DNA of 64,000 nucleotides from an uncultured Acidimicrobiaceae bacterium. GTDB taxonomy: Bacteria; Actinomycetota; Acidimicrobiia; Acidimicrobiales; SZUA-35. The position numbers were made by a program, and so were the translations under genes. Under the pieces are notes generated by a model. It was not told where the DNA came from and ran no database searches. It saw only the letters and a list, made by a program, of their open reading frames with translations. The stretch spans positions 516 through 64,515 of the forward strand of contig CAMYLA010000011.1 of assembly GCA_947259095.1 (NCBI GenBank), in the 5' to 3' direction. Positions 30,778 to 44,786 of the stretch are shown in pieces (position 1 is the stretch's first letter; every line of letters begins with the position of its first letter).

Positions 30778-31002
30778 GGGTTCTCTCCTGTGGTTGACCG
30801 ATGTTGGCGGCGCCATGGGCCGGCGCAGGCCGGCAGGTGTTGATCGCTCGAGTGTTCACGGCCGGAAGCGGCTTGGCTGCGCCCGGCGCCGGACACCCGA
30901 TCTTGGCCCAACCGCATCGGGGTGGCCAGCCGAACCGGTCCGTCTGGCCGAAACCGATCTCCGTTGCCGGCCCCAGGCGCCGTCTCCGGGTGGCATCATG
31001 TG

Positions 31003-31833
31003 TCAATCCCCGGGCTCGAACCGATCGGCGCCGAAGCTCGGCTCGCGTTTCTCGACAAAGGCTGCCGCCCCCTCCGCCATGTTCTTCGGGATCAGCACCC
31101 GCTGCTGATCCCGCTCCAGGTCGAGTTGCCGGCTGAAGGTGTTGCGACCGGCCTGATCCAGCGCCATGCGGATCCTCGACATCGCCTCCGGGTTGGATCG
31201 GCCGAGCGACGACAAAAGGTCGGCGACCTCGTCGGCCAGGCGCTCGTCGTCCACCACCGACCAGATCAGCCCCCAGGCGGCCGCCTGCTCGGCATCGATC
31301 GGCTGGCCCAGCATCGCCACGGCCCTGGCCCGGGCCGCCCCGATGCGCTGTGGCAGGTGGAAGGTGATGCCCAGATCGGGCACGATGCCGAGCCGGGGGC
31401 CGAAGGTGCAGACGAATCGGGCCGACCGGGCTGCCACGGCGATGTCGCAACCGAGCGCCAGCCCGAGACCACCTCCGGCGACGACGCCGTTGATCTTGGC
31501 CACCGTCGGGACCGGGAGCTCGGCCAGCAGCCGGATCGGCGGATGGAAGACCTCATCCATGCTGCGAGCGATCGCCTCGGCTCGCTCGGCCGGATTGACG
31601 GTGGAGTCCACACCGGAGAGATCGGCGCCGGAGCAGAAGCCCCGGCCGGCGCCGGTGAGCACCACCGCCCGGACCGACCGATCATCGACGACCCGCTGCA
31701 GCGCCCGATGGAGCTCGATCATCAGCTCGTCGTTCATCGAGTTCAAGGTGTCCGGTCGGTTGAGGGTGATCGTCGTCACCCCATCGACCGTCTCGTACAG
31801 GACCGCTGCCTCGGCATCTCCCGACACGGGCAT
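31003..31833 (-). CDS. enoyl-CoA hydratase/isomerase (crotonase) family protein
   Basis: Motifs VVLTGAGRGFCSGADL, INGVVAGGGLGLALGCD and C-terminal EGAAAFVEKR. Confidence 0.85.
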   Translation of the reverse strand: MPVSGDAEAAVLYETVDGVTTITLNRPDTLNSMNDELMIELHRALQRVVDDRSVRAVVLTGAGRGFCSGADLSGVDSTVNPAERAEAIARSMDEVFHPPIRLLAELPVPTVAKINGVVAGGGLGLALGCDIAVAARSARFVCTFGPRLGIVPDLGITFHLPQRIGAARARAVAMLGQPIDAEQAAAWGLIWSVVDDERLADEVADLLSSLGRSNPEAMSRIRMALDQAGRNTFSRQLDLERDQQRVLIPKNMAEGAAAFVEKREPSFGADRFEPGD

Positions 31834-31860
31834 CTCCTCTCCTGGGGGCGGCGGGGCCGC

Positions 31861-32739
31861 TCAGGCCGCCTGCAACTTCTCGCCGTCGATGGTGATGCGA
31901 TGCATGAGCCGCCGCTGGCCGTGGTAGTCGTTCAGGGCCCGATGCTGCACAGCCCGGTTGTCCCACACCGCCATGGCACCGGCCGTCCACCGGAACCGAC
32001 AACTGAAGACCTCCATTGCTCCATGGCGGTAGAGGAACTCGAGCAGGGGCTTCGACTCCTCGTCGGTCCAGCCTTCGAACCGCAGGGTGAAGTCGGTGTT
32101 CACATACAGGCAGGGACGACCGGAAAGCGGATGCTCGATCACCACCGGATGGGTCGCGTCCTGGGTTGCGGCTTCGGCGTTCCCGATGCGACCGGCGATG
32201 TCGTTGCCGTTCGGGCCGGCTGTGGGCTGCGGCGATTCGAGTGCGCCGAAGACATGCCGGCTCGAGTGTTCGGCCCGCAGGTTCCGCAGCGTGGCCTTCA
32301 TGCCATTGGACAGGGCGTCGTAGGCGGCGGCCATCCCGGCAAAGCAGGTGTCTCCGCCCAGGGTCGGCACCTCCCGGGCGTAGAGCAACGAACCCATGGC
32401 CGGGACCTGATCGTAGGAATGGTCGGTATGCCAGTTCACACCGATGTTGCGCGTCTGGTCCGGCTCCTTGCGGACCTCGGCGATCTGGGGATGGCCGTCG
32501 ACCGGTTTGAAAAACCGGTTGACGTTGATCTCCCCCCACCGTTCGGCGAATGCGATGTGCTGGTCCGGCGTGATGTCCTGATCCCGGAGAAAGATCACAC
32601 CATTGTCGATGAAGGCCCGGCGGATCTCGGCCATCTGGTCTTCGGAAACGCCGGCGGCGATGTCGACCCCGCCGATCTCGGCGCCGACCGCCGGCGACAA
32701 CCGGTCGACGGTGATGGTCTGATAGCTGGTCTCGGCCAT
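31861..32739 (-). CDS. TauD/TfdA-family Fe(II)/2-oxoglutarate dioxygenase
   Basis: The H-x-D facial-triad motif is visible in WHTDHSY, and WDNRAVQHRA lies near the C-terminus. Confidence 0.85.
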   Translation of the reverse strand: MAETSYQTITVDRLSPAVGAEIGGVDIAAGVSEDQMAEIRRAFIDNGVIFLRDQDITPDQHIAFAERWGEINVNRFFKPVDGHPQIAEVRKEPDQTRNIGVNWHTDHSYDQVPAMGSLLYAREVPTLGGDTCFAGMAAAYDALSNGMKATLRNLRAEHSSRHVFGALESPQPTAGPNGNDIAGRIGNAEAATQDATHPVVIEHPLSGRPCLYVNTDFTLRFEGWTDEESKPLLEFLYRHGAMEVFSCRFRWTAGAMAVWDNRAVQHRALNDYHGQRRLMHRITIDGEKLQAA

Positions 32740-32862
32740 GGTGGAACCTCCGTCAGCGCCCCTGTGCGATATGCCAACAACAGTACGGCCAACCGGCGCC
32801 GGCCCACCAGCCGGTGCCGTGCGGTCGATCGGTTCGAGTTCGCTTCGGGAAGACCTGGCGTG

Positions 32863-35004
32863 TCAGGTCCGATCGGGCTGTGGAATCTCGGCGATTGCGC
32901 TCAGTGGACCGTTGACGGCGTAGGCAGCGATGTTGTCAGCGAGACCGGGGAGTTCGGCGACCGGTTCGATATCCCATTCGCTCAGGGCCTGTGCCACGTT
33001 CACATCGACCAGTACTTGACCGGGTCCCGCCAGCGAAGCCAGTGTCTCGGCGACGCCGGGCGGGTCGCCCCAGACGCCGAAGGCGAGTTGATCGTCGCCG
33101 AGGACGCCCGTCGCCACATCGCCGGCGGACATGCCGGCCCTGACGTACAGCTGGTGGCCGTACTCGGCGCCGATCTCGGTTGCCAGCTCGGTCATGGCGA
33201 GGGTGAACTCGGCCGCGTCGACCGCCCGAACGTCTTCCTGGTCAAGTCCGGTGAGGAACAGCTGACTGCCGGAGGACTGGCGGATACGCTCGACCCCGTA
33301 GCGCTCCATGATCGCTCCTACTCTCCCGTTCAGCTGTTCCGCGATCTCCAGCTCGAGGTCCGGATCGTCGCCGGCGACTTCGGAAACGTCGACGGTGACG
33401 GAGACAACCGTTGCCGTGTCGACAATGTCCTTAATGGCTCGCTCGCCTTGCCGGACCCGATCGATCAGCCGTTTTGGCAACAGCGCGGCCAGCATGTCGT
33501 TTATGTGTTGCTCTTCGTCGCGGATCGCCTGTTCCTGTGATTCGAGCTGTTGTGCGACGCCTTGGAGCTGGCGCCCCACGTCTCCGAGCTCGTTGTCCCC
33601 AAGGTCCTCCACCTCGCCCTGAAGATCGCCGTCAGCGATCAGCGAGGCGCTTCGCACCAGGGATTTGGCCGGCTTTGTCAGGATGCGGGCGAGGAACGCC
33701 CCCACCAAGGCGATCGTCGGCAGCAGCACCGCCAGGACCAACAAGATGCCGCGCAGGAGCGAGTTGAGCGCATTGTCGGTCTCGGACTCGTCAAGCTCGA
33801 CGACGACCACCCAGCCGAGATCGGCGACCCGAGCGGGGGCTGACGTCGCCAGGGTCTCGATGCCAAGGTAGTTCGACACGGACCCAACGAACTCGGTGCC
33901 GTCCAGGCCTGCCGTGACGGCCTCGTTGTCCACCGATTGCAGGAGAACCGGGGAGCCGATCGTGGCGATCAGATCGGCCTCATCCTGGTCACCGTACTGG
34001 TCCACAAATCGGCGCAGGTAGTCGTCGGGATCCTCGAGCCACGCCCGCGAGTCGGACCGGAGCTGACGGTCGACACCCACGATGTAGCTTTCCCCGGTAT
34101 CGCCGAGACCGAGCAGCTCCCAATCCTGCTGCGCGGTCATGGCGGCGGTCACCACCTCGACCGGCACCTCGGTGACGATGGCGCCGACAACCTCTCGTTC
34201 CGATCGGATCGCCGCCGCGAGGAAGAACACGGGGTCCCCCGCCGTCGGGACATAGAAGACACTGTCGGACACGACGGTGTCGCCGACGGCCACCGTTGTC
34301 AGTTTGTCGAGGACCTCACCGAGCCCAGCCTTCACACCGTCGACGTTGTTGGCGTACGGCCCGGTCAGCCCATTGGTACCGAACTCAATTCGCTTCTTCG
34401 TCGAGTACACGACATTGCCATCGGCGTCCACAAGGAAGAGGTCGGCCGTGCCGGCGTTCTCCATCAGAGACCGCAGCAGCGGGTGGTGTTCGGCGTGGGC
34501 CGCGCTGTAGCCCGAGCCGTCGCCGGCATCGTCGAGCCGATCGCGCTCGTCGAAGCCGTTCGGGTTCTGGGCGATGTAGCGAGACTGGAGGTAGCGGCCC
34601 GCTGCGGACTGTGGCACGAGATCAATCGCCGGGAGATCGACGCCGGCGTCGACGATCGGCGGGAGGAATTCGGTGTCGTAGACCGCGACGAGTTCACCGA
34701 TCTCCTCCGACGTCGCATCTCCGTCGATCTGTTGGAACTCGTTCGACAGGTCGACGAGGGCGGCCTCGACACTCGAGTTGGCGGCCAGCGCCGAGACTCG
34801 GGATTGCAGGCGGGCCATGCCGGCTTCGAGGGCTTCCACGCGCCCATCGCGCACCGCAGTGAGCTGAGACTGCACGGTGTCGTCGATCAGCCTGCTGGCA
34901 AAGACGTAGATAACAGCTGAGAGCAGGAGCACTGCGACGAGGGCGAGGCCGATCAGCGCAGTCGAGAGTCGCCGGCGGAGGCTGGTGGGACGGGCTCGGT
35001 TCAT
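32863..35004 (-). CDS. membrane sensor: TM - double-Cache-like extracytoplasmic domain - TM - HAMP - class III cyclase-homology domain (apparently degenerate)
   Basis: A 713-aa protein. N-terminal TM (LIGLALVAVLLLSAVIYVF), then about 380 aa of periplasmic-type sequence, then a second TM (GILLVLAVLLPTIALVGAFLA). HAMP follows (LTKPAKSLVRSASLIADGDL...), then a C-terminal CHD-like region (...GVWGDPPGVAETLAS...). ATG 35004 overlaps the channel gene's TGA as ATGA. Confidence 0.75.
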   Translation of the reverse strand: MNRARPTSLRRRLSTALIGLALVAVLLLSAVIYVFASRLIDDTVQSQLTAVRDGRVEALEAGMARLQSRVSALAANSSVEAALVDLSNEFQQIDGDATSEEIGELVAVYDTEFLPPIVDAGVDLPAIDLVPQSAAGRYLQSRYIAQNPNGFDERDRLDDAGDGSGYSAAHAEHHPLLRSLMENAGTADLFLVDADGNVVYSTKKRIEFGTNGLTGPYANNVDGVKAGLGEVLDKLTTVAVGDTVVSDSVFYVPTAGDPVFFLAAAIRSEREVVGAIVTEVPVEVVTAAMTAQQDWELLGLGDTGESYIVGVDRQLRSDSRAWLEDPDDYLRRFVDQYGDQDEADLIATIGSPVLLQSVDNEAVTAGLDGTEFVGSVSNYLGIETLATSAPARVADLGWVVVVELDESETDNALNSLLRGILLVLAVLLPTIALVGAFLARILTKPAKSLVRSASLIADGDLQGEVEDLGDNELGDVGRQLQGVAQQLESQEQAIRDEEQHINDMLAALLPKRLIDRVRQGERAIKDIVDTATVVSVTVDVSEVAGDDPDLELEIAEQLNGRVGAIMERYGVERIRQSSGSQLFLTGLDQEDVRAVDAAEFTLAMTELATEIGAEYGHQLYVRAGMSAGDVATGVLGDDQLAFGVWGDPPGVAETLASLAGPGQVLVDVNVAQALSEWDIEPVAELPGLADNIAAYAVNGPLSAIAEIPQPDRT

Positions 35005-36524
35005 GACCCTTCACCCGGCGGTCCTGTCGGTCCTGTCGGCGCCGACAATGAGTCGCCCTCACCATCACCGACGGATCGGCGCAGCACGCGTTCGATGCGC
35101 CGCCGCCTCGTGACCGCCAGCTGATCGAGCACGGCGGCCAGATCAGGGACGGCCAAGACCGCGCGAGCGGCGGCCTCAGGCGGAACCCTCACCACATCAC
35201 AGTCGGTCGCGGCGATGACCACCGGGGACCCGCCGCCCTCAGGCGGCTCGGCCAGCACGCCGACAAAGTCGCCGGCCTCGATATCCAACACGTCCAGATC
35301 TTCGGCGTCGTCCCGTCGGAGCGCCAGCCGGGCCCGGCCCTGATGGAGCAGCAACAAGTCGCGCTGAGCACCCTCCACGATGATGGTCTCACCTCGCTGG
35401 TACTGGACCAGGGACGCTGCGGCCGCCAAATGGTCGAGGACGTCGTCATCGACGGCGCGCAGGAGCGGCATGTCGGCAATGCGCCTGCGAAGATCGGCCG
35501 CGGTGACCTGGTTCTCGATCGCCGTCTGCGCGCCGTCGAACAAGTAGAGATCCTGCGCCGGATTGGGGAGGGGGACGTCGTGGCGATACGACAGATACCA
35601 GACGAGCGCGCCGAAGTCAGCCTTCACCCGTTTGGCGATCGTGTAGTCCTCGATCCACATGAACGCCTCGTAGTCGACGACCGGGTCGGCCATCTGGCTG
35701 ACCCTGGCGGACGGTGGCGGGTCCTCAACGACTCCTGGGGTCGAGCGGGCGGCGTCGATCAGCATCTCGATCGCTGCGGTCGGCGGCGCTGATCGCTCGA
35801 TCTGCACGGGGACCATCACCCTGTGGAACCGGTTCGGTTGGTCGAAGTTGGTGATGGTCGCTTTGGCCAGCGTTGCGTTCGGGATGACGACCAGGTCGCC
35901 GTTACGGTCCTGGATCCGGGACGAGCGCCAGTTGATGTCGATCACCCGGCCCTCGACGCCCTCGGATTCGATCCAGTCACCGGGCCCGAAGGGCTGATCG
36001 GCGAGCAGGGTGAAACCGGAGGCAATTCCGCTCAGCGTGTCCTGCAGCGCAAAGGAGATCACCAGCGAGGTCACGCCGAGCGCGGTGAGTGCGGCCGAGA
36101 GATCGACGCCCCACACCCCGGCGATGAGCAGCCAAGCAGTGGCCAGGATGAGCAGCAGCCGAGGGAGGGCCAGCAACAGCCGAGGGACCGGACGCCCGCC
36201 GGACCGCCGAGGTCGGCCGGCCAGGTCGGCGACGACCACCCGAAGCGCCGACAGTCCGGCCGTTGCGCCGGCGAGGAGCACGGCGCTGCCAAGCAGCTGC
36301 AGCCAGAGGTTGTCGTCCTCGACGTCGAGCAGCACCCGAGCCAACACCCACAGCGTCAGCAGCGGCACAACCCACGCACCGACTGTCGAGACTGTGGCTT
36401 GGAACCGTGAATCGCGTTGGCGCAACCGCTCCTGAAGCTCACCGACGCCGATGATCAACAGCGGCAGGACGATGATGATCAGCCCGGCCAGCGCGGCGTT
36501 CGAGTCGAGGAACAGCGTGCTCAT
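35001..36524 (-). CDS. MscS-family mechanosensitive channel fused to a C-terminal cyclic-nucleotide-binding-like domain
   Basis: The TM3/beta-domain signature reads SFALQDTLSGIASGFTLLADQPFGPGDWIESEGVEGRVIDINWRSSRIQDRNGDLVVIPNA. The C-terminal region is CNB-like (LVQYQRGETIIVEG...LDIEAGDFVGVLAE...VVIAATDCDVVRV). ATGA overlaps occur at both ends of the gene. Confidence 0.8.
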   Translation of the reverse strand: MSTLFLDSNAALAGLIIIVLPLLIIGVGELQERLRQRDSRFQATVSTVGAWVVPLLTLWVLARVLLDVEDDNLWLQLLGSAVLLAGATAGLSALRVVVADLAGRPRRSGGRPVPRLLLALPRLLLILATAWLLIAGVWGVDLSAALTALGVTSLVISFALQDTLSGIASGFTLLADQPFGPGDWIESEGVEGRVIDINWRSSRIQDRNGDLVVIPNATLAKATITNFDQPNRFHRVMVPVQIERSAPPTAAIEMLIDAARSTPGVVEDPPPSARVSQMADPVVDYEAFMWIEDYTIAKRVKADFGALVWYLSYRHDVPLPNPAQDLYLFDGAQTAIENQVTAADLRRRIADMPLLRAVDDDVLDHLAAAASLVQYQRGETIIVEGAQRDLLLLHQGRARLALRRDDAEDLDVLDIEAGDFVGVLAEPPEGGGSPVVIAATDCDVVRVPPEAAARAVLAVPDLAAVLDQLAVTRRRRIERVLRRSVGDGEGDSLSAPTGPTGPPGEGS

Positions 36525-38695
36525 CGCACTGCCTCGCCCTCGATCGCCCGTCCCGACACGATGGCCGTGCCGCGGCCGTCGACCACGTCGATGCGGTCCT
36601 CGATTGCGAAGCGTGTCGGCAACTGTGTCCGGACCTCAGTGGAGACCGTCACTTCATTCCAGCTGCTGCGCCTGGCCAGATCCGCCGCCCGTTGTACCGT
36701 GGTTCCCCAGGCGTCGTACACGAGCCCCGAGCCGCCAGTGAGTCCGACGGTCACCGGCCCGGAGTCGACACCCACCTTCATCGAGATGACCTGGCCGTCG
36801 TCACCGAGATCGGCGACGAGGTCACGTACATCCAGCACGAACGACACCGCTCGCGCCGCGTGGTCGATGTGTGGTCGAATCGTGCCGCAGGCGGCAACGT
36901 AGGCGTCACCGGTGAGCCGGATCCGTTCGAGACCGCGTTGTTTGGCCAACGCGTCGGTCTCCTCGACGACGCGATCGAGCAGCGCCCGGGCTTCGTCGGT
37001 TGAACCGGCTCGCATCAGCGATCCGAGCCCGCCGATCACCAGAACCACGACCGTGGCCTGCGCCACCTGATCGACCACATTCTCTTCTCCGGCCTCGGCT
37101 CGCTGGGCGGCCTGCGGGGGGAGGATTTGCCGCAGTAAGCGACGCCGCTCGGCCGCCCGCTCGGTGGCGGCGGCATATCGGGCCGCCAGCGTTTCCAGCA
37201 TGGTGTCGATGTCGCCGGCGAGGCCGACAAATTCCGTTGGGCTGTTGGCCGGGAGCGCGGCCGAGCTCACGCCTTTTTCGATCCGGTCGCCGGCCCGTAC
37301 CGCCCTCAGCTTGGTGGAGATGATCCGCAGGGGCTGGAGGAGGCGATCAGCCCATCGCACGGCAATGAAGGTGACCGCCACGAGAAACAAGGCAATCGCT
37401 ATCAGCAGGTTGCGAACGAACTCCTCGATCGGCGCGTCCAGCTCCTGAAGCTCGACCTCTGTGAGCAACGCCCACTCCAGCCCCTCGATGTCGAGGGCAC
37501 GACGAGCTTGGAGGACATCGGCACCGAGGTAGTTGGTGCTGTCCACGAAACCGGGCTCCTCGTCGAGGGCGCGAGCGACGTCCTGGTCGTCGATCGGCTG
37601 CAACAAGACGGTCGTCCCGAGCATCGCCATCGATGCGGTCTGGCTTTCGGTTGCCGTCCCGGCGGCTGTCACCGCCGACAGATACGAGCTCTCGTCCTCG
37701 ATGAAACCGCGTGCGTCTGAGCGCATCAGGCTGTCGCCGGCAACCACGTACGTCTCGCCGGTGTCGCCAAGTGCTTCCCATGAGCCGTCGTCGGTGGTGA
37801 TCGAGCTGATCCGATCGGGACCGATTCGGATTGCAGCGAATCCGGCAAGAGCCCCGTTGGCGAAAACGGGGCTGGCGATGAACAGGCTGGGCTCGTCGCC
37901 CGCCGCGGTGTAGCTGGTGAAGTCTTCGATCACGGCCACACCGGGTTCGGGATCGGGGCCGAAGGAGCTGATGAGGGCGGCCAGCGCAGTCCCACTCTGT
38001 GAGCCGGTAAGGAGGCTGGTGGCGAAGTCGATGTCCTTCGCCGTGGAGTACACGATGGTCTGTTGCTCCGGCTCGATGAGGTAGAGGTCGTCCACACCGA
38101 AGCGGGTCGCGAACGCCAGAGCAGACTGGTTGATGGCGCTGTGCAGCTCGGACCAGCGGCTCCCGTCACCGGCGTCGTTGAGCAAGCCTCCATCGCCGCC
38201 GTCGGGGACGATGTAGTTGGCCTGGAGGTGGATGGCAGCCGGGTCACGAGGAAAGAGGCTGGCGGCAGCGACGGGCCGTCCGCGAACAGCTGACAGCGAC
38301 GGTGCGACCGTCTCGACGTAGTACTCCTCGAGGGCGCTCCGGTCGCTGCCCGACGGCGCCTCGCTCTGCAGCTCTCGATAGGCGTCGGCGAGCTCGTCGA
38401 TCGCCTGGGCGGTGCCGGGACTGATCGCTTGTGAGATCAACGCTCGCTCGAGCCCGCCGATATAGAGCTCGACCTGATCTGCGCGCGACGCGCCGATCGA
38501 CGTGGTTCGTGCCAGGAGAAGTTCGTCGGTGATCTCGCCACCGCGCGCCAGCCCCACGGCCGCCGTGATCACCAGCGAGACGAGAGCGACCAGGAGCACG
38601 ACCAGCGACAACCGGGTTGCGACCGAGATGTTTCTGGCGATTCGACCCGGGGCGGCCCGAAGCCGTGCCAGTCTGGAAGATCCTGGTTCGGTCAT
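36521..38695 (-). CDS. membrane sensor: TM - Cache-like extracytoplasmic domain - TM - HAMP - class III cyclase-homology domain (apparently degenerate)
   Basis: A 724-aa protein with the same architecture as 32863..35004. TM1 is LSLVVLLVALVSLVITAAVGL and TM2 is LLIAIALFLVAVTFIAV. The HAMP/coiled coil is followed by a CHD with IRLTGDAYVAACG and YDAWGTTVQRAADLA. Confidence 0.75.
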   Translation of the reverse strand: MTEPGSSRLARLRAAPGRIARNISVATRLSLVVLLVALVSLVITAAVGLARGGEITDELLLARTTSIGASRADQVELYIGGLERALISQAISPGTAQAIDELADAYRELQSEAPSGSDRSALEEYYVETVAPSLSAVRGRPVAAASLFPRDPAAIHLQANYIVPDGGDGGLLNDAGDGSRWSELHSAINQSALAFATRFGVDDLYLIEPEQQTIVYSTAKDIDFATSLLTGSQSGTALAALISSFGPDPEPGVAVIEDFTSYTAAGDEPSLFIASPVFANGALAGFAAIRIGPDRISSITTDDGSWEALGDTGETYVVAGDSLMRSDARGFIEDESSYLSAVTAAGTATESQTASMAMLGTTVLLQPIDDQDVARALDEEPGFVDSTNYLGADVLQARRALDIEGLEWALLTEVELQELDAPIEEFVRNLLIAIALFLVAVTFIAVRWADRLLQPLRIISTKLRAVRAGDRIEKGVSSAALPANSPTEFVGLAGDIDTMLETLAARYAAATERAAERRRLLRQILPPQAAQRAEAGEENVVDQVAQATVVVLVIGGLGSLMRAGSTDEARALLDRVVEETDALAKQRGLERIRLTGDAYVAACGTIRPHIDHAARAVSFVLDVRDLVADLGDDGQVISMKVGVDSGPVTVGLTGGSGLVYDAWGTTVQRAADLARRSSWNEVTVSTEVRTQLPTRFAIEDRIDVVDGRGTAIVSGRAIEGEAVR

Positions 38696-38939
38696 GTTGG
38701 CTGACCGGGCCCTATGCGTGGGGCTCGTTGCCGTGGCGTCTTGCCGACCCCAGCGACTTCCCGGCTTGCCAAGATGGGTTGACCAGGCCCGCGATCGAAT
38801 CCTCCACGGAAGGACTATAACTTACCTTCGAGAAAAGGGGACGATCGGCGTCGGGACGGGCAGCGACAAGGAGCTGCGCCGCCTCTTCGGTGTCGCAGGG
38901 CTGAGCTGGCCGGACCACCGGTTCTTGACTGCGTCGGCC

Positions 38940-39947
38940 TCAGATGACAAAGGTGTCGCCGATGGCTTCCTCGCTCTTGCTCCAGAGAAGGTCGCGCGTC
39001 TCGGCGTTGTCGTAGAAGGATTCGAGAGCGAACGGCTCGGCCTTGCCTTTGAACGCACTGCTGCCGGAGCCGGGTCCGTAGAACTGACCGGACTCTGCGC
39101 TTGGCAGACACATGCAGCTCAAGATGCCCATCGCCCCGTCTTCTGGACTCTGGCTGAATCTCATGAACAACCCGGTGAAGAAGCTCCCCATACCGCCTTC
39201 TCTGACCGACGTCAGTTGCAGGTGCGTATTCGCCAATCCGGGGTGAGCCACGAGCGCCTTGATATTCGATCCCCTCTGCTGCAAGCGGTCGTGAAGCGCG
39301 GCGGTGAAGGCTGCGTTCGCCAATTTCGATTGGTTGTAGCGAATCCAGCGCGCTCCTCGGAACATGAGATTCTCCATCTGCGACCCATCGCCACCGAGCC
39401 GTCCGCCGTTTTCCTCCAGGTAGTCGGGGAGGAGTGTCTTGCCGGGGCTCATCCTGGCGATGCTGGAGTGGTTGACGATCCGGGCTTCGCCAGACGCATC
39501 TGCGGCCCGCTCCAACAACGGCATCAACTCACGCGCCAGCACGAAATGTGAGAGGTGATTGGTCTGCATCTGCACGTCGAAGCCGTCGGCGGTTGCTGTG
39601 TCAGCCAGCGCCATGACGCCGGCGTTGTTGCACAGGACATGCACTCCTTCGGGGCAGATTTCCCGGACGAGGGTGGCAGCGGCCCTCACAGAGGCGAAGG
39701 ACTGGAGGTCGCATTCGACACTCTGGAGTTCGGCGTCGGGACACGCGGTTGTGAGCTCGGCGAAGCTGGCGGTCGATCGGTCGGAGGCTCGATTGAGCAC
39801 GAGGACTTTCGCTCCGAGTTCGGCCAGGGTGAGAGCGGCCACCTTGCCGGTGCCCGATGTTGTGCCCGTGATGACCGCAGTCTTGCCGGTCATCGATGGG
39901 AGACTCGATCGAAACGTGGGGAAGTGTTTTGAGGGCGTCGTGGTCAT
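38940..39947 (-). CDS. short-chain dehydrogenase/reductase (SDR), WWOX/retinol-dehydrogenase-like
   Basis: Cofactor motif GKTAVITGTTSGTGK, NNAGVM, and Y-x3-K in YNQSKLAN. GC is clearly lower: 59/100 in a hand-counted sample versus about 72/100 elsewhere. The start is ATG 39947 or ATG 39893. Confidence 0.8.
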   Translation of the reverse strand: MTTTPSKHFPTFRSSLPSMTGKTAVITGTTSGTGKVAALTLAELGAKVLVLNRASDRSTASFAELTTACPDAELQSVECDLQSFASVRAAATLVREICPEGVHVLCNNAGVMALADTATADGFDVQMQTNHLSHFVLARELMPLLERAADASGEARIVNHSSIARMSPGKTLLPDYLEENGGRLGGDGSQMENLMFRGARWIRYNQSKLANAAFTAALHDRLQQRGSNIKALVAHPGLANTHLQLTSVREGGMGSFFTGLFMRFSQSPEDGAMGILSCMCLPSAESGQFYGPGSGSSAFKGKAEPFALESFYDNAETRDLLWSKSEEAIGDTFVI

Positions 39948-40209: not shown

Positions 40210-40656
40210 TCAGCCTTGGCCGGGGAGCTCGACCTCGACGGTTGCGCCACCCCAGCCGCTGACCTGGTCGCGGCCCTGCACGATCACCTTGACCACCGAC
40301 TCGGGGATCTCGATACCGGATTGGCTCCTGGTGAAGGGCTGCTCCGACTGATGGTCGTGGGTCAACTCTCGAATGCCGTAGACCTCGCCGTCGGGGCCGC
40401 TGACCCGCCAGGCATCGGCATAGCGGTCGGGGGTGTCATATGGCGAGCTGAGGGTCGCCGAGAAGGTCCAGGCACCGTCGGCGTCCCGCACCGCAACCGC
40501 CTCCACCACGTCGGGGTAGAGCTCCTCGGCCGGCTCGATGGCCTCGGCCGCAACGGCCGGGGCGCCGTCGGCGCGGTCGGACCCACAGGCCGTGATCAGC
40601 AGGGCAAGGATCATTGCGGCCACAGCCGGCCCGGGGCCCGGTGTGCTTCGGCTCAT
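40210..40656 (-). CDS. hypothetical lipoprotein
   Basis: Signal peptide with lipobox: AVAAMILALLITAC-GS. High GC3 throughout. The mature domain contains HDHQSEQPFTRS. The start is ATG 40656 or ATG 40680. Confidence 0.55.
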   Translation of the reverse strand: MSRSTPGPGPAVAAMILALLITACGSDRADGAPAVAAEAIEPAEELYPDVVEAVAVRDADGAWTFSATLSSPYDTPDRYADAWRVSGPDGEVYGIRELTHDHQSEQPFTRSQSGIEIPESVVKVIVQGRDQVSGWGGATVEVELPGQG

Positions 40657-40799
40657 CGGGCCGGGATGTGGATTGCCCATGGCCTCAGTGTGGCACGGTG
40701 CAACCCGGACCGAGGTTCGGGTCGAGGTCGGCGCCGACGCCACGACCGACCCCAACCGCGGTCCGCCTCTGCGAGTCGGGCCCGGGATCGGGCCGAGGC

Positions 40800-42149
40800 T
40801 CAGCGGCCGACCAGGCCCGCAACCGTTCTCGCCGCCGCCAGCAACCGGTGATCGGCCATCGGGCCGCCCATCAGCATCAGGCCGACCGGCGGCTCTCCGG
40901 GGGCCGAGGCCGGCACGCTGATCGCACAACCGTCGAGGAAGTTGCCGACCGAGGTGTTGCGGAGGCACAGCAGGTTCTGCTTCGAGTAGTGGTCGCGGTC
41001 ACCATCGTCGAAACCGCCCACGGTCGGAGGCAGGATCGCCACCGTCGGCAGGACGAAGGCGTCGAGGCCGACCGAGCGCTCGGCCGCGGCGGCGATCAGT
41101 CGGCGCCGGTGTTGCAGCACCTCGATGTAGTGGGCGGCCGACATGTCCCGACCGGGCTCGATCCTGGTCCGGACCCGCTGGTCGTACTCGTCTCCCCTCG
41201 ACGCCAACAGCTCCCGATGCCAGGCGTAGGCTTCGGCGGTGGCCAGACCACCCTGCCGGTTGATGTGGGGCAGGTCGTCGAGCTCGGGAAACGGGGCGTC
41301 GATCACGGTCGCCCCGGCGGCCGAAAGCGCCGACAGGGCTCGGTGGTAGCTATCGGCCACCGTGTCGTCCATGTCGTCGAGCACCAGGTCGCTCAGGGCG
41401 CCGAGCCGAAGTCGATCAACCGGGATCGCCCGCTCGTCGACCAGGCCGGAGCCACCGGCGAAGACGTCGTCGACGATGGCGCAGCAATCGACGGACCGCC
41501 CGAGCGGGCCAATCGAATCGAGCGAGAATGACAGGGGCACCACGCCGTCGAGCGGGATGCGTCTGGCGGTGGGCTTGAACCCGACGATCCCACAGAACGC
41601 AGCCGGGATACGACAGGACCCGCCGGTGTCGGTGCCGAGACCGACCGGGGCCATCCCGTCGGCTACCGCCACCGCGGTCCCCGACGACGAGCCACCGGGT
41701 ATGTGGCCGACCTCCCGGTTCCAGGGGCTCCGCGGGGTGTCGTGGTGGGCGTTCAAACCAAGCCCGGAGTAGGCGAACTCGGTCATGTTGGTTCGGCCCA
41801 TGATGATGAAGCCGGCCGCCCGCAGCCGAGCCACCACCGGTGCGTCGGCGACGGCCGGGGCTCGGTCGGCCAGGACGGTCGAGCCGGCGGTGGTGACCTC
41901 ACCGGCGACATCGGCCAGGTCCTTGATCGCAACCGGCAGGCCGGCGAACGGGGGCAGTACGGCCCCGCCGGCCCGGATGGTGTCGTAGCCGTCGGCGATG
42001 GCCCTGGCCCGGTCGGCCTCCACCCGGAGGAAGGCCCGGGACCCCTCGCCTGCCGGGTCCTCGATGGCGGCCAGGCATTGCTCGACAAGCTGCCGTGAGG
42101 TCAGCGAACCGTCGGCCAACCGGGCCGCCAGTGCTCGCAGCGGTTTCAT
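40800..42149 (-). CDS. amidase (amidase-signature family, GatA-like)
   Basis: The amidase signature reads GGSSSGTAVAVADG and is preceded by the KD...TTAGS region. The start is trimmed to ATG 42149 (MKPLRALAARL...). Confidence 0.85.
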   Translation of the reverse strand: MKPLRALAARLADGSLTSRQLVEQCLAAIEDPAGEGSRAFLRVEADRARAIADGYDTIRAGGAVLPPFAGLPVAIKDLADVAGEVTTAGSTVLADRAPAVADAPVVARLRAAGFIIMGRTNMTEFAYSGLGLNAHHDTPRSPWNREVGHIPGGSSSGTAVAVADGMAPVGLGTDTGGSCRIPAAFCGIVGFKPTARRIPLDGVVPLSFSLDSIGPLGRSVDCCAIVDDVFAGGSGLVDERAIPVDRLRLGALSDLVLDDMDDTVADSYHRALSALSAAGATVIDAPFPELDDLPHINRQGGLATAEAYAWHRELLASRGDEYDQRVRTRIEPGRDMSAAHYIEVLQHRRRLIAAAAERSVGLDAFVLPTVAILPPTVGGFDDGDRDHYSKQNLLCLRNTSVGNFLDGCAISVPASAPGEPPVGLMLMGGPMADHRLLAAARTVAGLVGR

Positions 42150-42177
42150 CGGTGCCGCCCCCGGCGGGCCGGCACCA

Positions 42178-42213
42178 TCAGGACCCGGTCCACCGTCAGG
42201 ACCCGATCCACCG
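42178..42213. repeat. 2 x 18-nt tandem duplication spanning a stop codon
   Basis: tcaggacccggtccaccg / tcaggacccgatccaccg. On the minus strand it reads R-W-I-G-S-stop then R-W-T-G-S-stop. The 3' end of the crotonase gene, including its TGA, is therefore duplicated. Confidence 0.9.
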
Positions 42214-42954
42214 TGGCGGCCGTTTCTCGGCGAACGCCTGCGGCCCCTCCTTGGCATCGTCGGATGCGAAGACCTCCCGTTGCAGTGGCTCCTGCAGTTT
42301 CCAGAAGTCTTCTTCGGTGCTTCCCTGGGCCGCTCGGATCAACCGCTTCGAGGCCGAGACGGCGAGGGGTGCATTGCGGGCCACCCGGTTGGCCAGCTCC
42401 ATCGCCACCTCGAGGGCCTGGCCCTTCTCGGCCACCCGGGTCACCAGGCCGTAGGCCGCAGCCTCTTCGGCGGTGATCGGGTCGGCGGTGAGCGCCATCT
42501 CCATCGCCTTGCCGTAGCCGACCCTCGTCGGCAGCCTGGCCAGGCCCCCGGCAGCGGCGAACAGTCCGACACCGGCCTCGGGGATCCCCAACTTCACGCC
42601 CTTGGCCGCCACCAACAGGTCGCAGCTCAACGCCAGCTCCAGTCCCCCGGCCAGGGCGAAGCCCTCGATGGCGGCGATCAGCGGTTTGTCGGCGCCGTGG
42701 CGGATGAACTTCATCATCGGCCCGATGTCCTCACCCCGGGCAAAGGCCTTGAGGTCCATCCCGGCGCTGAACCCGCGACCGGCCCCGGTCAGGACCCCGG
42801 CGGTCAAACCGGGGGTGCCGTCGAGCTCCTCAACCGCCGCCACCAACCCGGCCGACAGAGCACCGTTGATGGCGTTCATGGCATCCGGTCGGTTGAGGGT
42901 GATCAGCAGGACCCGATCCCGTTGCTCGGTCAGCACGGCCGGCTCTTCACTCAT
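42196..42954 (-). CDS. enoyl-CoA hydratase/isomerase (crotonase) family protein
   Basis: Motifs VLTGAGRGFSAGMDL, IEGFALAGGLELALSCD and C-terminal EGPQAFAEKRPP. Confidence 0.85.
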   Translation of the reverse strand: MSEEPAVLTEQRDRVLLITLNRPDAMNAINGALSAGLVAAVEELDGTPGLTAGVLTGAGRGFSAGMDLKAFARGEDIGPMMKFIRHGADKPLIAAIEGFALAGGLELALSCDLLVAAKGVKLGIPEAGVGLFAAAGGLARLPTRVGYGKAMEMALTADPITAEEAAAYGLVTRVAEKGQALEVAMELANRVARNAPLAVSASKRLIRAAQGSTEEDFWKLQEPLQREVFASDDAKEGPQAFAEKRPPRWIGS

Positions 42955-42993
42955 GATGCACGTTCCTCTCCCGGCCGCCGATGGGTCGGTTCG

Positions 42994-44202
42994 TCAGGCT
43001 GCGGCTCGCTCGAGGATGTGGACCCCACAGGCCGAGCCGAGGCCGATAACGTGGGCCAGGCCCACCTTGGCGTCGGCGATCTGGCGATCGCCGCACTCGT
43101 GGCGAAGGTGCTGGCACACCTCCCAGATGTTGGCGATACCGGTGGCCGAGATCGGATGACCCTTCGACTGGAGCCCGCCCGAGACGTTGACCGGCTTCTC
43201 GCCGTCGCGCCATGGCGCCCCGGAGTTGAAGAAGTCGACCGCCCCACCCTGCTCGCAGAGACCGAGGTTGTCGTAGTGGACCAGTTCGGCGGTGGCGAAG
43301 CAGTCGTGGAGCTCCACCAGGTCGAGATCGTCCGGGCCGACCCCGGCCTGCTCGTAGGCCTGGGTGGCGGCGTTGCGGGTCAGGGTGTTCACGTCCGGCA
43401 GGATCTGGCAGGACTCCTGCCAGGGGTCAGACGTCAGCACCGATGCCGAAACCTTGACCGCTCGTCGCTGCTGCTCCGTGGACAGGGTCTTCAAGGTCGC
43501 ACCGTTGGTGACCACCGCCGCCGCGGCCCCATCGCAGTTGGCAGAGCACATCGGCCGGGTGTTGGGGTAGGCGATCATGACGTCGTTCATGATCTGTTCC
43601 AACGGCATGGCCTTGCTGTAGGCCGCCAGCGGGTTCAGGGTGGAGTGGGAGTGGTTCTTTTCGCTGATCTTGGCGAACAACTCGAAACTGGTACCGCCGT
43701 ACTTGTGGCCGTACTCCATGCCGACCTGGGCGAACACACCGGGCATGGTGGCGGTGCCGATCCGCCCGTCGGTCGGGGCGACCGCTCCGAAGCGGCCGGA
43801 CGGCTCGTAGACCTTGCCGTCGGACCGAGCCTTGCCGCCGCCACCGAGCAGACCGGCCCCGGCCAGCTTCTCGACCCCGACGGCCAAGCCCATGTCGCAT
43901 TCGCCGGCCTTCACCGCCATGATCGCCGTCCGAAGGGCGGTGGCGCCGGTGGCGCAGGCATTGGAGACGTTGTACACCGGGACACCGGTCTGGCCGACCT
44001 GCTTCTGGAGCTGTTGGCCGACACCGCCACCGCCCATGAGATTCCCGGCGGCCACGATCCCCATGTCTGCCATGGTCGTGCCGGCATCGGCCAGCGCTCC
44101 CCTGATCGCTTCGGCACCGAGGTCGACCACGTCCTTGTCCGGGTGCTTGCCGAATTTGGTCATGTGGATGCCAAGGATCCAGATGTCTTCACTTGCACTC
44201 AT
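42994..44202 (-). CDS. thiolase-fold protein, SCP-x / lipid-transfer-protein type
   Basis: The nucleophile-region motif reads VYNVSNACATGATAL. Near the C-terminus GGLQSKGHPISATG is present. Pairing with a DUF35 gene is typical of this subgroup. Confidence 0.85.
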   Translation of the reverse strand: MSASEDIWILGIHMTKFGKHPDKDVVDLGAEAIRGALADAGTTMADMGIVAAGNLMGGGGVGQQLQKQVGQTGVPVYNVSNACATGATALRTAIMAVKAGECDMGLAVGVEKLAGAGLLGGGGKARSDGKVYEPSGRFGAVAPTDGRIGTATMPGVFAQVGMEYGHKYGGTSFELFAKISEKNHSHSTLNPLAAYSKAMPLEQIMNDVMIAYPNTRPMCSANCDGAAAAVVTNGATLKTLSTEQQRRAVKVSASVLTSDPWQESCQILPDVNTLTRNAATQAYEQAGVGPDDLDLVELHDCFATAELVHYDNLGLCEQGGAVDFFNSGAPWRDGEKPVNVSGGLQSKGHPISATGIANIWEVCQHLRHECGDRQIADAKVGLAHVIGLGSACGVHILERAAA

Positions 44203-44357
44203 GAGCGTTCTCCTTGTTGCGGGTTCCTCGGGTTGGTGTGCTGCCCGGCTCGGGTCTCGTGGTCGAACGGCACCGAATCGGGTTCTGTGTTTGGTGGGGT
44301 CCGACTCGGTGGCTCCGGTCGAATTCGGTCGCTTCCGGTGGCTTTGGATCGGCGGCG

Positions 44358-44786
44358 TCAGCCGGCGGCGGCGGCCCCCACCGGCTCGTAGCCGAAACCG
44401 ATCGCCTCGGTGCCGTTGTCATCCTGGCCGAGTGAGTAGGTGGCGAGCCGAACCGCCATGCCCAGTGTCACGTTGTCCGGGTCCGGTTCGACGTTGATCA
44501 CGTTGCCCCGAACGCTGGTGCCGCCACAGTCGATCACCCCGGCCACGAACGGCACCTCGACTCCGGGGCCGGCGTGGGCCACGATGGTGAACGATCGCAG
44601 CACGCCGTCGTTGTCGATCGGCACCGTCTTGAACTGGTCACCGAAGCAGGATGCGCAGGCGTTGCGGCGATCGAAGTATCGGGCACCACACTTCGTGCAC
44701 TCGACGGCAACCAGGTGCGGTTCGTCACCCAGCACCAGATAGTCGACGAGGGGAACCTGCCCGGTACGTTGTGCTTGTTCAGCCAA
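44358..44786 (-). CDS. DUF35 OB-fold/zinc-ribbon acyl-CoA-associated protein
   Basis: Zinc ribbon ECTKCGARYFDRRNACASCFG followed by an OB-fold-like C-terminus. I place the start at TTG 44786, which has GGAGAAG 5 nt upstream and gives 142 aa, the typical size. ATG 44891 is the upstream alternative, but its codons have lower GC3. Confidence 0.7.
   Translation of the reverse strand: MAEQAQRTGQVPLVDYLVLGDEPHLVAVECTKCGARYFDRRNACASCFGDQFKTVPIDNDGVLRSFTIVAHAGPGVEVPFVAGVIDCGGTSVRGNVINVEPDPDNVTLGMAVRLATYSLGQDDNGTEAIGFGYEPVGAAAAG

Follow-up and report, generated by a model that had tools for sequence, protein, structure and literature searches.

A candidate sensor-channel module built from degenerate cyclase-homology receptors and an MscS-type channel in an uncultured Acidimicrobiaceae bacterium

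We analysed a 64-kb window (the whole stretch of DNA considered here, ~68% GC) from contig CAMYLA010000011.1 of an uncultured, marine-type Acidimicrobiaceae bacterium, the nearest relatives of which are Ilumatobacteraceae/Acidimicrobiia metagenome-assembled genomes (MAGs). On its minus strand three overlapping genes, referred to here as A, B and C from upstream to downstream, encode a membrane receptor ending in a class III cyclase-homology domain (CHD), an MscS-family channel with a C-terminal domain homologous to cyclic-nucleotide-binding (CNB) domains, and a second receptor paralogous to the first. Both CHDs lack catalytic residues throughout their families, the phosphate-binding cassette of this channel has neither its Glu nor its Arg, and the three-gene arrangement is conserved among relatives. 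To the full mechanism that we favour, a pseudo-cyclase/pseudo-CNB module in which two sensors would gate a channel through direct protein coupling, we assign a probability of roughly 45%. An earlier note on this DNA had left this reading beside another, a heterodimer of the sensors with a very atypical active site; the former fits better and the latter less well, since no dimer of A and C completes a site.

Genes A, B and C are joined by two ATGA overlaps of stop and start codons (contexts ...GTGCGATGAGCACG... and ...GGGTCATGAACCGA...; Table 1). The A-B-C order was found in ~27 species-level Ilumatobacteraceae/Acidimicrobiia genomes (GTDB species representatives), down to 46% channel identity, and in essentially every related locus long enough to show it, with the 4-nt overlaps kept in nearly all orthologous loci. 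More distant channels (34–48% identity) lie in the same sandwich of genes in MAG loci L115, L034 and L030 (the last from a Chloroflexota MAG), and probably in L116; in all of these distant loci both partners lack the first metal-binding Asp. The genes that neighbour the cluster in the window (SDR, amidase, TauD, enoyl-CoA hydratase and FAH genes) are not beside it in other genomes. As the flanks vary while the order and the overlaps persist, the three genes can be regarded as an autonomous module, and on this sequence evidence it is very probable that A, B and C form a single functional unit. Co-expression of the three genes, proposed in the earlier note from the overlaps, is supported by their presence in the window and their conservation in relatives, and the cyclase-channel-cyclase order to which it drew attention proved to be conserved across those ~27 species. 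A scan of positions 32500–39100 for promoters and terminators, which is uninformative for a 68% GC actinobacterium, returned nothing above chance, including no sigma-70-like site and no terminator between A, B and C.

The domain architectures first described by eye agree with the Pfam matches and with the AF2 models, which are single-chain models. In the chemoreceptor-like proteins A and C, a transmembrane (TM) helix, the sensor, a second TM helix, HAMP, the transducer helix and the CHD follow one another. Protein A matched Guanylate_cyc (PF00211) with 76.7 bits (2e-21; Pfam gathering threshold, GA, 21.9) and HAMP (PF00672) weakly, with 14.5 bits (GA 25). Among A-type relatives the Guanylate_cyc match was present in 21/21, dCache_1 in 6/21 (best 1e-13) and HAMP in 5/21. 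The sensor region of A itself gave no direct Cache match in Pfam; it aligns with the sensor of C at 25–31% identity, and by this homology can be classed as dCache-like. Protein C matched dCache_1 (PF02743) with 37.2 bits (3e-9), under its GA of 45, HAMP with 32.3 bits, over the GA, and Guanylate_cyc with 48.8 bits, and PF02743 is precomputed in most homologues of C. The AF2 model of C (pLDDT 83) matched in Foldseek the ligand-binding domains of CtaA, DctB, PctA and McpH as well as HAMP-containing chemoreceptor models, and its similarity to the catalytic domains of Rv1625c, RhGC and Cya2 (TMt 0.6–0.7) indicates that the CHD fold is probably retained. Between HAMP and CHD, the transducer segment LLRQILPPQAAQRAEAGE of A aligned to LLANMLPASIAERLKEPE of Rv1625c, following the pattern LLxxxLPxxxxxRxxxGE, and is the best-conserved part of A (0.78).

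The channel assignment of B is supported by several methods. MS_channel_2nd (PF00924) scored 68.7 bits (GA 20.2), a phmmer search against MscS structures gave 1e-19 over residues 106–293, and the top 46 Foldseek matches of its AF2 model (pLDDT 77) all belonged to the MscS family (MscS, YnaI, MscK, YbiO, MSL1/MSL10, Flycatcher1). The match to cNMP_binding (PF00027) reached 26.3 bits, slightly below its GA of 27.5; PF00027 is precomputed in most homologues, and the CNB region of B matched the CNB domain of SthK at 1.6e-4. The MscS core is the most conserved portion of the protein (0.86), with a ratio of nonsynonymous to synonymous substitution rates (omega) of 0.09–0.2, a rough figure as the synonymous divergence (dS) is near saturation.

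Class III cyclase active sites form at a dimer interface, to which one chain contributes two Asp and the other contributes the Lys, Asp, Asn and Arg. For Rv1625c we take these residues to be D256 and D300 for the metals, K296 and D365 for the substrate, and N372 and R376 for the transition state. Rv1625c and Cya are the best solved sequence relatives of both CHDs, and the six positions (the hexad) were read from HMMER alignments to Rv1625c/Cya structures and from MAFFT alignments. At D256/K296/D300/D365/N372/R376, protein A has V/R/D/D/Q/D. In 24 A orthologues, the D256 site is never Asp and the D300 and D365 sites always are, while the N372 site is Gln in 22 and the R376 site is Asp or Glu in 21. 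Alignment to Rv1625c confirmed what the earlier note had read in A, namely that GDAY is kept and that the first metal Asp as well as the Asn and Arg are lost; the description in the note has to be completed in that the substrate Asp (YDAWG) is also kept and that Arg stands for the substrate Lys, a conservative change leaving Arg/Asp as the substrate pair.

Degeneracy is complete in C, which has T (or a gap)/R/G/G/G/T at these positions and hence Arg/Gly as its substrate pair. Across 114 C-family clusters, Asp was never found at the D256 site; the D365 site is Gly or Ser and never Asp; the D300 site is mostly Gly, Thr or Ala (Asp in 5/114); the N372 site is mostly Gly, Ser or Thr (Asn in 3/114); and Thr occupies the R376 site in 99. 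This agrees with the absence of Asn and Arg and with the degenerate RQSSGSQ motif noted before in C. The Asp in VTVDVSE, which had been taken as kept, is not at the canonical metal position: D539 (window 33388–33390) lies 2–3 positions past that of the first metal Asp, predicted to fall after strand beta1. An acidic residue at this site is nevertheless conserved, with Asp or Glu in 105/114 C-family clusters.

No A/A, C/C or A/C pairing yields a site in which the two metal Asp, Asn and Arg are all present. Since neither A nor C retains the first metal Asp, or the Asn and Arg of the transition state, both pseudo-symmetric sites of any dimer would be incomplete, and it is highly probable from the sequences that A and C have no cyclase activity. 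A complementary heterodimer of the C1/C2 kind, in which the two chains restore one site, was considered and is ruled out by the hexads here and in all other sandwich loci. The degeneracy of both CHDs is thus borne out in profile alignments and holds family-wide. Both CHDs are as conserved as the remainder of their proteins, and omega for the CHD is close to that of the sensor in A (~0.1–0.3 for the CHD) and in C (0.14–0.5), values that are rough and qualitative only with dS ~1, near saturation. To judge from these sequences, the CHDs appear to be in use and not decaying, their degeneracy being kept under purifying selection.

The phosphate-binding cassette of B reads G-V...G-S-P where that of CRP reads G-E...R-S-A, so that the Glu and Arg reported missing in the window are indeed Val and Gly by alignment. 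In 120 close homologue clusters of B the cassette Glu is absent from all, and the Arg is present in 99 and replaced by G, Q, W, H, L or Y in the other 21. The claim of a concerted degeneracy of all three sites therefore stands for this genome, and family-wide for both CHDs, but for the cassette only the loss of Glu is family-wide, Arg being kept in ~82%. Within the CNB domain, variability peaks in the cassette loop. As the Glu is never present, the Arg is replaced in many ways and the loop is the most variable stretch, the site appears to be unconstrained for cyclic nucleotide monophosphates (cNMPs), and it is likely that the CNB domain of this B does not bind cNMPs in the canonical manner. 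The alpha-C helix of B is unusually Arg-rich (TRRRRIERVLRR, residues 472–483, window 35073–35108). This feature is confined to the channels of the sandwich clade and absent from pair-only and canonical-cassette channels, and it was accordingly dropped as a candidate for a family-wide partner motif. As a speculation, its charge might complement the Asp/Glu found at the catalytic Arg site of A in 21/24 orthologues.

A full HMMER search with B returned 598 cluster representatives at E<1e-30. For the 131 full-length representatives closest to B, the cassettes were distributed as Glu and Arg (31), Glu only (62), neither (36), Glu and Lys (1) and Arg only (1), with Arg mostly replaced by Ser in the Glu-only cassettes ('GEPSPVSV'). 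A two-gene form, with a dCache-HAMP-CHD gene followed by the channel gene and no third gene, was found in the more distant relatives L032, L117, L118, the P0131 contig and Nostoc cf. commune SO-36 (L119), whose CHD has the hexad R/S/T/N/Y/R. Named two-gene members are mostly cyanobacteria and Caldilineaceae, and 102/110 have Ser at the cassette Arg site. By sequence comparison, the three-gene sandwich appears to be derived from a two-gene module that is very common and occurs in cyanobacteria, Chloroflexota and others; a duplication in the clade of the window would have added the second, fully degenerate receptor C. The earlier note had suggested that the sandwich was undescribed; no description of it was found in a limited literature search (the original bCNG papers being outside it), but its two-gene relative is widespread, Nostoc included.

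A profile-based scan of metagenome contigs, taken as an unbiased sample, added 80 further loci, in which adjacency was counted only where at least 2 kb upstream was available. An adjacent dCache-HAMP-CHD gene accompanied 23/24 channels with an Arg-less cassette and 0/22 with the canonical Glu and Arg (Fisher p = 6e-12, uncorrected for shared ancestry); the combination of an Arg-less cassette with an adjacent CHD gene is in effect a subfamily trait. Among ~40 channel-adjacent CHDs, the full hexad DKDDNR was present in two (L050 and L056) and both metal Asp in five more, and the remainder are degenerate in diverse ways (ERADAR, EKADSG, RREENR, KKDDVS and others). As some members (L050, L056) have a complete hexad, the ancestral pair probably used cyclic AMP (cAMP) and consisted of a genuine receptor cyclase and a CNB-bearing channel. 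From that state, to judge by the hexads and cassettes, the family appears to have lost catalytic residues and cyclic-phosphate contacts time and again, yet to have kept its domains, adjacency and translational coupling. For such repeated loss with kept domains, adjacency and coupling, the simplest account would be a receptor-channel link that is independent of a diffusible nucleotide.

Several loci of the family show features of their own. In L119 (2519–4996, AP025732.1) the 825-aa dCache-HAMP-CHD protein next to the channel has an additional Globin (PF00042) match at its C-terminus. L038 (5956–9016) contains two tandem channel genes after one CHD gene, and in L072 (4461–8088) the order is reversed, the channel gene preceding the CHD gene. 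Directly after the module, L030 (6617–9043) encodes an 808-aa OpuAC+Peripla_BP_6 protein and L032 (7537–12809) carries PBP_like_2, SBP and ABC ATPase genes; these solute-binding and transport neighbours may hint at a link with compatible solutes or nutrients. A and/or C are split by frameshifts in L002, L025 and L026 (MFD* MAG assemblies), whose neighbours and close relatives are intact, and the splits are probably assembly errors rather than pseudogenes.

In the mechanism that we propose, A, B and C would be made together through translational coupling, and A and C would pair, most likely as a heterodimer. Such a heterodimer with two distinct sensor domains is suggested by the occurrence of C, which was seen only together with A. 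A signal from ligand binding outside the cell would travel by way of HAMP and the transducer helix into the CHD dimer, which would make no cyclic nucleotide and would act as a non-catalytic conformational output module. Its conformational change would act directly on the cytoplasmic CNB-homology and cage part of B, predicted to be a heptameric MscS-type channel whose CNB-homology domain would be devoid of the canonical cyclic-phosphate and ribose contacts, and would alter its gating. A second-messenger relay would in this way have been short-circuited into a protein-protein relay. Established here are the gene structure, the domain homologies, the residue losses with their conservation, the synteny and the family-wide link of an Arg-less cassette to an adjacent CHD gene; we infer from sequence the catalytic inactivity, the absence of cNMP binding, the A/C heterodimer, that the receptors physically touch the channel, and which way the signal runs. 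More tentatively, the module could stand for a widespread class of bacterial sensor-channel complexes, in which dead CHD dimers of dCache receptors gate an MscS-type channel via a nucleotide-blind CNB-homology domain, so that a cAMP relay would have turned in evolution into a ligand-gated 'mechanosensitive-type' channel; this class might comprise a two-gene form in cyanobacteria, Chloroflexota and others and a three-gene, heterodimeric form in Acidimicrobiia.

A number of points weigh against this mechanism. A dimer acting on a heptamer poses a stoichiometric puzzle, and the contact of A/C with B is itself inferred. The cassette Arg is retained in 99/120 close homologue clusters, and the Glu is not strictly required for cAMP binding, Epac having Gln in its place, so many orthologous channels might bind a nucleotide made elsewhere. 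Protein A keeps D300, D365 and a Lys-to-Arg substitution that may allow purine nucleotide binding, and the acidic residue of C near the metal site could conceivably ligate a metal, though the second Asp, the Asn and the Arg would still be gone. The complete hexads of L050 and L056 also belong here, as do bCNG channels reported to be cAMP-gated (Caldwell 2010, as cited in PMC13591265).

The alternatives differ in how they use this evidence. The least improbable of them, though unlikely, is a loose linkage, in which the channel answers membrane tension or cAMP from other cyclases, and A and C have some other output, for example as scaffolds or regulators of other cyclases. The MscS core is complete and highly conserved, most orthologues keep the cassette Arg, and the 64-kb window, in which no further cyclase or CRP genes were found, leaves room for cyclases elsewhere in the genome. 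Such independence is hard to reconcile with 4-nt overlaps and strict synteny maintained across wide divergence while the flanks change, with the near-perfect association of the channel subfamily with an adjacent CHD gene, and with A and C having no other recognisable output domain. It is also doubtful that a nucleotide relay persists, with an atypical site of the A/C heterodimer making a cyclic or other nucleotide to be read by a non-canonical pocket in the CNB domain of B. Each site would have at most one metal ligand, no Asn and no Arg, with Asp/Glu in A and Thr in C at R376; the 'catalytic' positions vary so widely among lineages that they misfit one conserved chemistry, and conservation within the CNB domain is lowest in the cassette loop. 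What speaks for the relay is that A keeps D300, D365 and an Arg at K296, that C has its conserved Asp/Glu just after strand beta1, that the Arg survives in most orthologous cassettes, that two relatives have full hexads, and that public annotation lists A/C-type proteins as class 3 adenylate cyclases.

Heterodimeric class III cyclases use their degenerate site for regulation, and that of the mammalian enzymes binds forskolin. By analogy, the degenerate CHD dimer could be a non-catalytic sensor of ATP or GTP levels that combines the energy state of the cell with the outside signal and then acts on the channel; the purine-specifying positions kept in A (Arg/Asp at K296/D365) would suit this role, which we hold to be improbable given that the phosphate- and metal-binding residues are gone from both chains. 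Signalling in reverse, from an MscS-like protein that senses tension to A and C, would be in line with MscS-family proteins being tension sensors, and the intact cyclases of L050 and L056 could serve as its output. In the window, as A and C have neither a catalytic nor another output domain, nothing lies downstream to be signalled to, and this direction is very unlikely here. A Pycsar-like anti-phage system, already set aside in the earlier note, has a negligible probability. Its resemblance to the module is formal only, that is, a class III-like cyclase gene beside a gene for a CNB membrane protein; here the catalytic residues have been lost, the proteins carry extracytoplasmic dCache sensors, the effector is of the MscS type, and throughout the family the module keeps a core-genome-like position with no defence-island context. 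No PADLOC family, be it the PycC-type cyclase or PycTM/PycTIR effector profiles of Pycsar or those of any other defence system, matched A, B or C at E<=0.01, which supports that dismissal.

The module can be compared with several known systems. Like B, bCNG channels combine an MscS pore and vestibule with a C-terminal CNB-type domain in ~480–530 aa, and B is a clear homologue of them. Unlike the canonical-cassette channels, B falls in a subfamily of its own, whose members have in common an extended N-terminal membrane region and a cassette without Arg and/or Glu, and are nearly always encoded beside a dCache-HAMP-CHD gene. According to PMC13591265, which cites Caldwell et al. 2010 and Malcolm et al. 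2012 for this channel type, MscS-CNB (bCNG-type) channels lack both an established physiological role and a solved structure. With the two-gene modules (such as that of Nostoc, L119) the window shares the A-then-channel order, the dCache-HAMP-CHD and MscS-CNB domains and, often, overlapping or near-abutting genes; it differs by the third gene, for a paralogous and fully degenerate receptor, after the channel. In picocyanobacteria, adenylate cyclases near such a channel have been taken to indicate cAMP regulation, the pair lying in genomic islands of marine Synechococcus (PMC7522525). The literature on two-gene pairs assumes cAMP production and a cAMP-regulated channel, whereas most adjacent CHDs in our set lack catalytic residues and the cassettes of the channels have no Arg.

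By structure and by sequence, A and C are matched best by class IIIa enzymes (Rv1625c, adenylate cyclases AC5/9 and soluble guanylate cyclase). In heterodimeric class III cyclases (C1/C2 of mammalian adenylate cyclases, alpha/beta of soluble guanylate cyclase) paralogous CHDs also pair head-to-tail with catalytic residues split unevenly between them; there the chains complement each other to one complete site, which the A/C combinations do not. For the channel, a parallel in mechanism is the CNB-homology domain of KCNH channels, in which another residue stands in place of the phosphate-binding Arg (Ser630 in rat EAG1), nucleotides are not bound and gating is regulated via contact with a PAS domain (PMC5806680). 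Replacement of Arg by Ser also dominates the cyclase-associated MscS-CNB subfamily. KCNH channels differ from B in having a tetrameric Kv-type pore, unrelated to the heptameric MscS one, and no 'intrinsic ligand' was identified in B, so the parallel is an analogy of mechanism and not homology.

MscS-CNB channels are already known, and the presence of cyclases in the vicinity of such a channel has been noted in passing. Neither a systematic loss of catalytic residues in channel-adjacent CHDs nor the split between Arg-less cyclase-adjacent and canonical stand-alone channels was found described in the limited literature search. Receptor-type class III 'adenylate cyclases' beside such channels are routinely annotated as active enzymes; if these neighbours are mostly pseudo-enzymes with nucleotide-blind CNB domains beside them, many of those annotations would be wrong, and the module would stand as a clear example from bacteria of direct protein coupling taking the place of a second-messenger pathway. 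The split between the two kinds of channel is a simple prediction that can be checked by a binding assay. M. tuberculosis proteins were present neither among 150 representatives nor in two cluster look-ups, and a profile search for high-GC relatives gave cyanobacteria. In that species Rv2435c adjoins an MscS-CNB protein, Rv2434c; the two are a candidate pair of this family. If channel-adjacent CHD proteins are indeed mostly pseudo-enzymes beside nucleotide-blind CNB domains, there would also be a testable way towards chemically gated MscS-family channels, and perhaps towards the role of Rv2435c/Rv2434c-type pairs in actinobacteria. A dCache domain has been reported in Rv2435c (PMC4822843).

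Table 1. Features of the A-B-C locus (positions in the window).
Feature	Position	Strand	Basis or remark
Gene A, receptor-type pseudo-cyclase, 724 aa	36521..38695	-	Open reading frame (ORF); Pfam Guanylate_cyc and weak HAMP
Gene B, MscS-family channel with C-terminal CNB-homology domain, 507 aa	35001..36524	-	ORF; Pfam, phmmer, AF2, Foldseek
Gene C, receptor-type pseudo-cyclase paralogous to A, 713 aa	32863..35004	-	ORF; Pfam, AF2, Foldseek
ATGA overlap, A stop / B start	36521..36524	-	Sequence; 4-nt overlap kept in nearly all orthologous loci
ATGA overlap, B stop / C start	35001..35004	-	Sequence; kept in orthologous loci
Intergenic region 5' of A, presumed operon promoter region	38696..38939	-	
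A, extracytoplasmic sensor, ~residues 51–425, dCache-like	37421..38545	-	Alignment with C; PF02743 in relatives L030, L034, L115, L118
A, HAMP and coiled-coil/cyclase-transducer, ~residues 447–545	37061..37357	-	Pfam; alignment to Rv1625c
A, CHD, degenerate hexad V/R/D/D/Q/D	36581..37060	-	HMMER and MAFFT alignments
A, CHD motif VVVLVIGGLGSL	37016-37051	-	
A, CHD motif RLTGDAY	36899-36919	-	
A, CHD motif YDAWGTTVQRAADLA	36674-36718	-	
B, MscS core (TM3 pore helix, beta domain, alpha-beta cage), ~residues 101–335	35520..36224	-	PF00924, phmmer, Foldseek
B, CNB-homology domain, ~residues 345–478	35091..35492	-	PF00027, SthK; AF2 model shows a beta-roll flanked by helices
B, phosphate-binding-cassette equivalent FVGVLAEPPEGGGSPVVIAAT, Glu to Val, Arg to Gly	35205..35267	-	Alignment to CRP
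C, dCache sensor, ~residues 41–415	33760..34884	-	PF02743 match; Foldseek
C, HAMP and coiled-coil/transducer, ~residues 436–530	33415..33699	-	HAMP match; alignment
C, CHD, six catalytic positions all replaced (T/R/G/G/G/T)	32965..33414	-	HMMER and MAFFT alignments
C, CHD motif VSVTVDVSEVAG	33370-33405	-	
C, CHD motif RQSSGSQ	33262-33282	-	
C, CHD motif FGVWGDPPGVAETLAS	33034-33081	-	

Two further observations concern open reading frames around the module. Between the SDR and amidase genes, a 252-aa ORF (40210–40968, minus strand) has no Pfam match and overlaps the 5' end of the amidase ORF; it may not be a genuine gene. Antisense ORFs of up to 872 aa lie opposite real genes (30922–33540 and 41998–44391, both on the plus strand, and others) and are the usual artefact of high-GC DNA, not genes.

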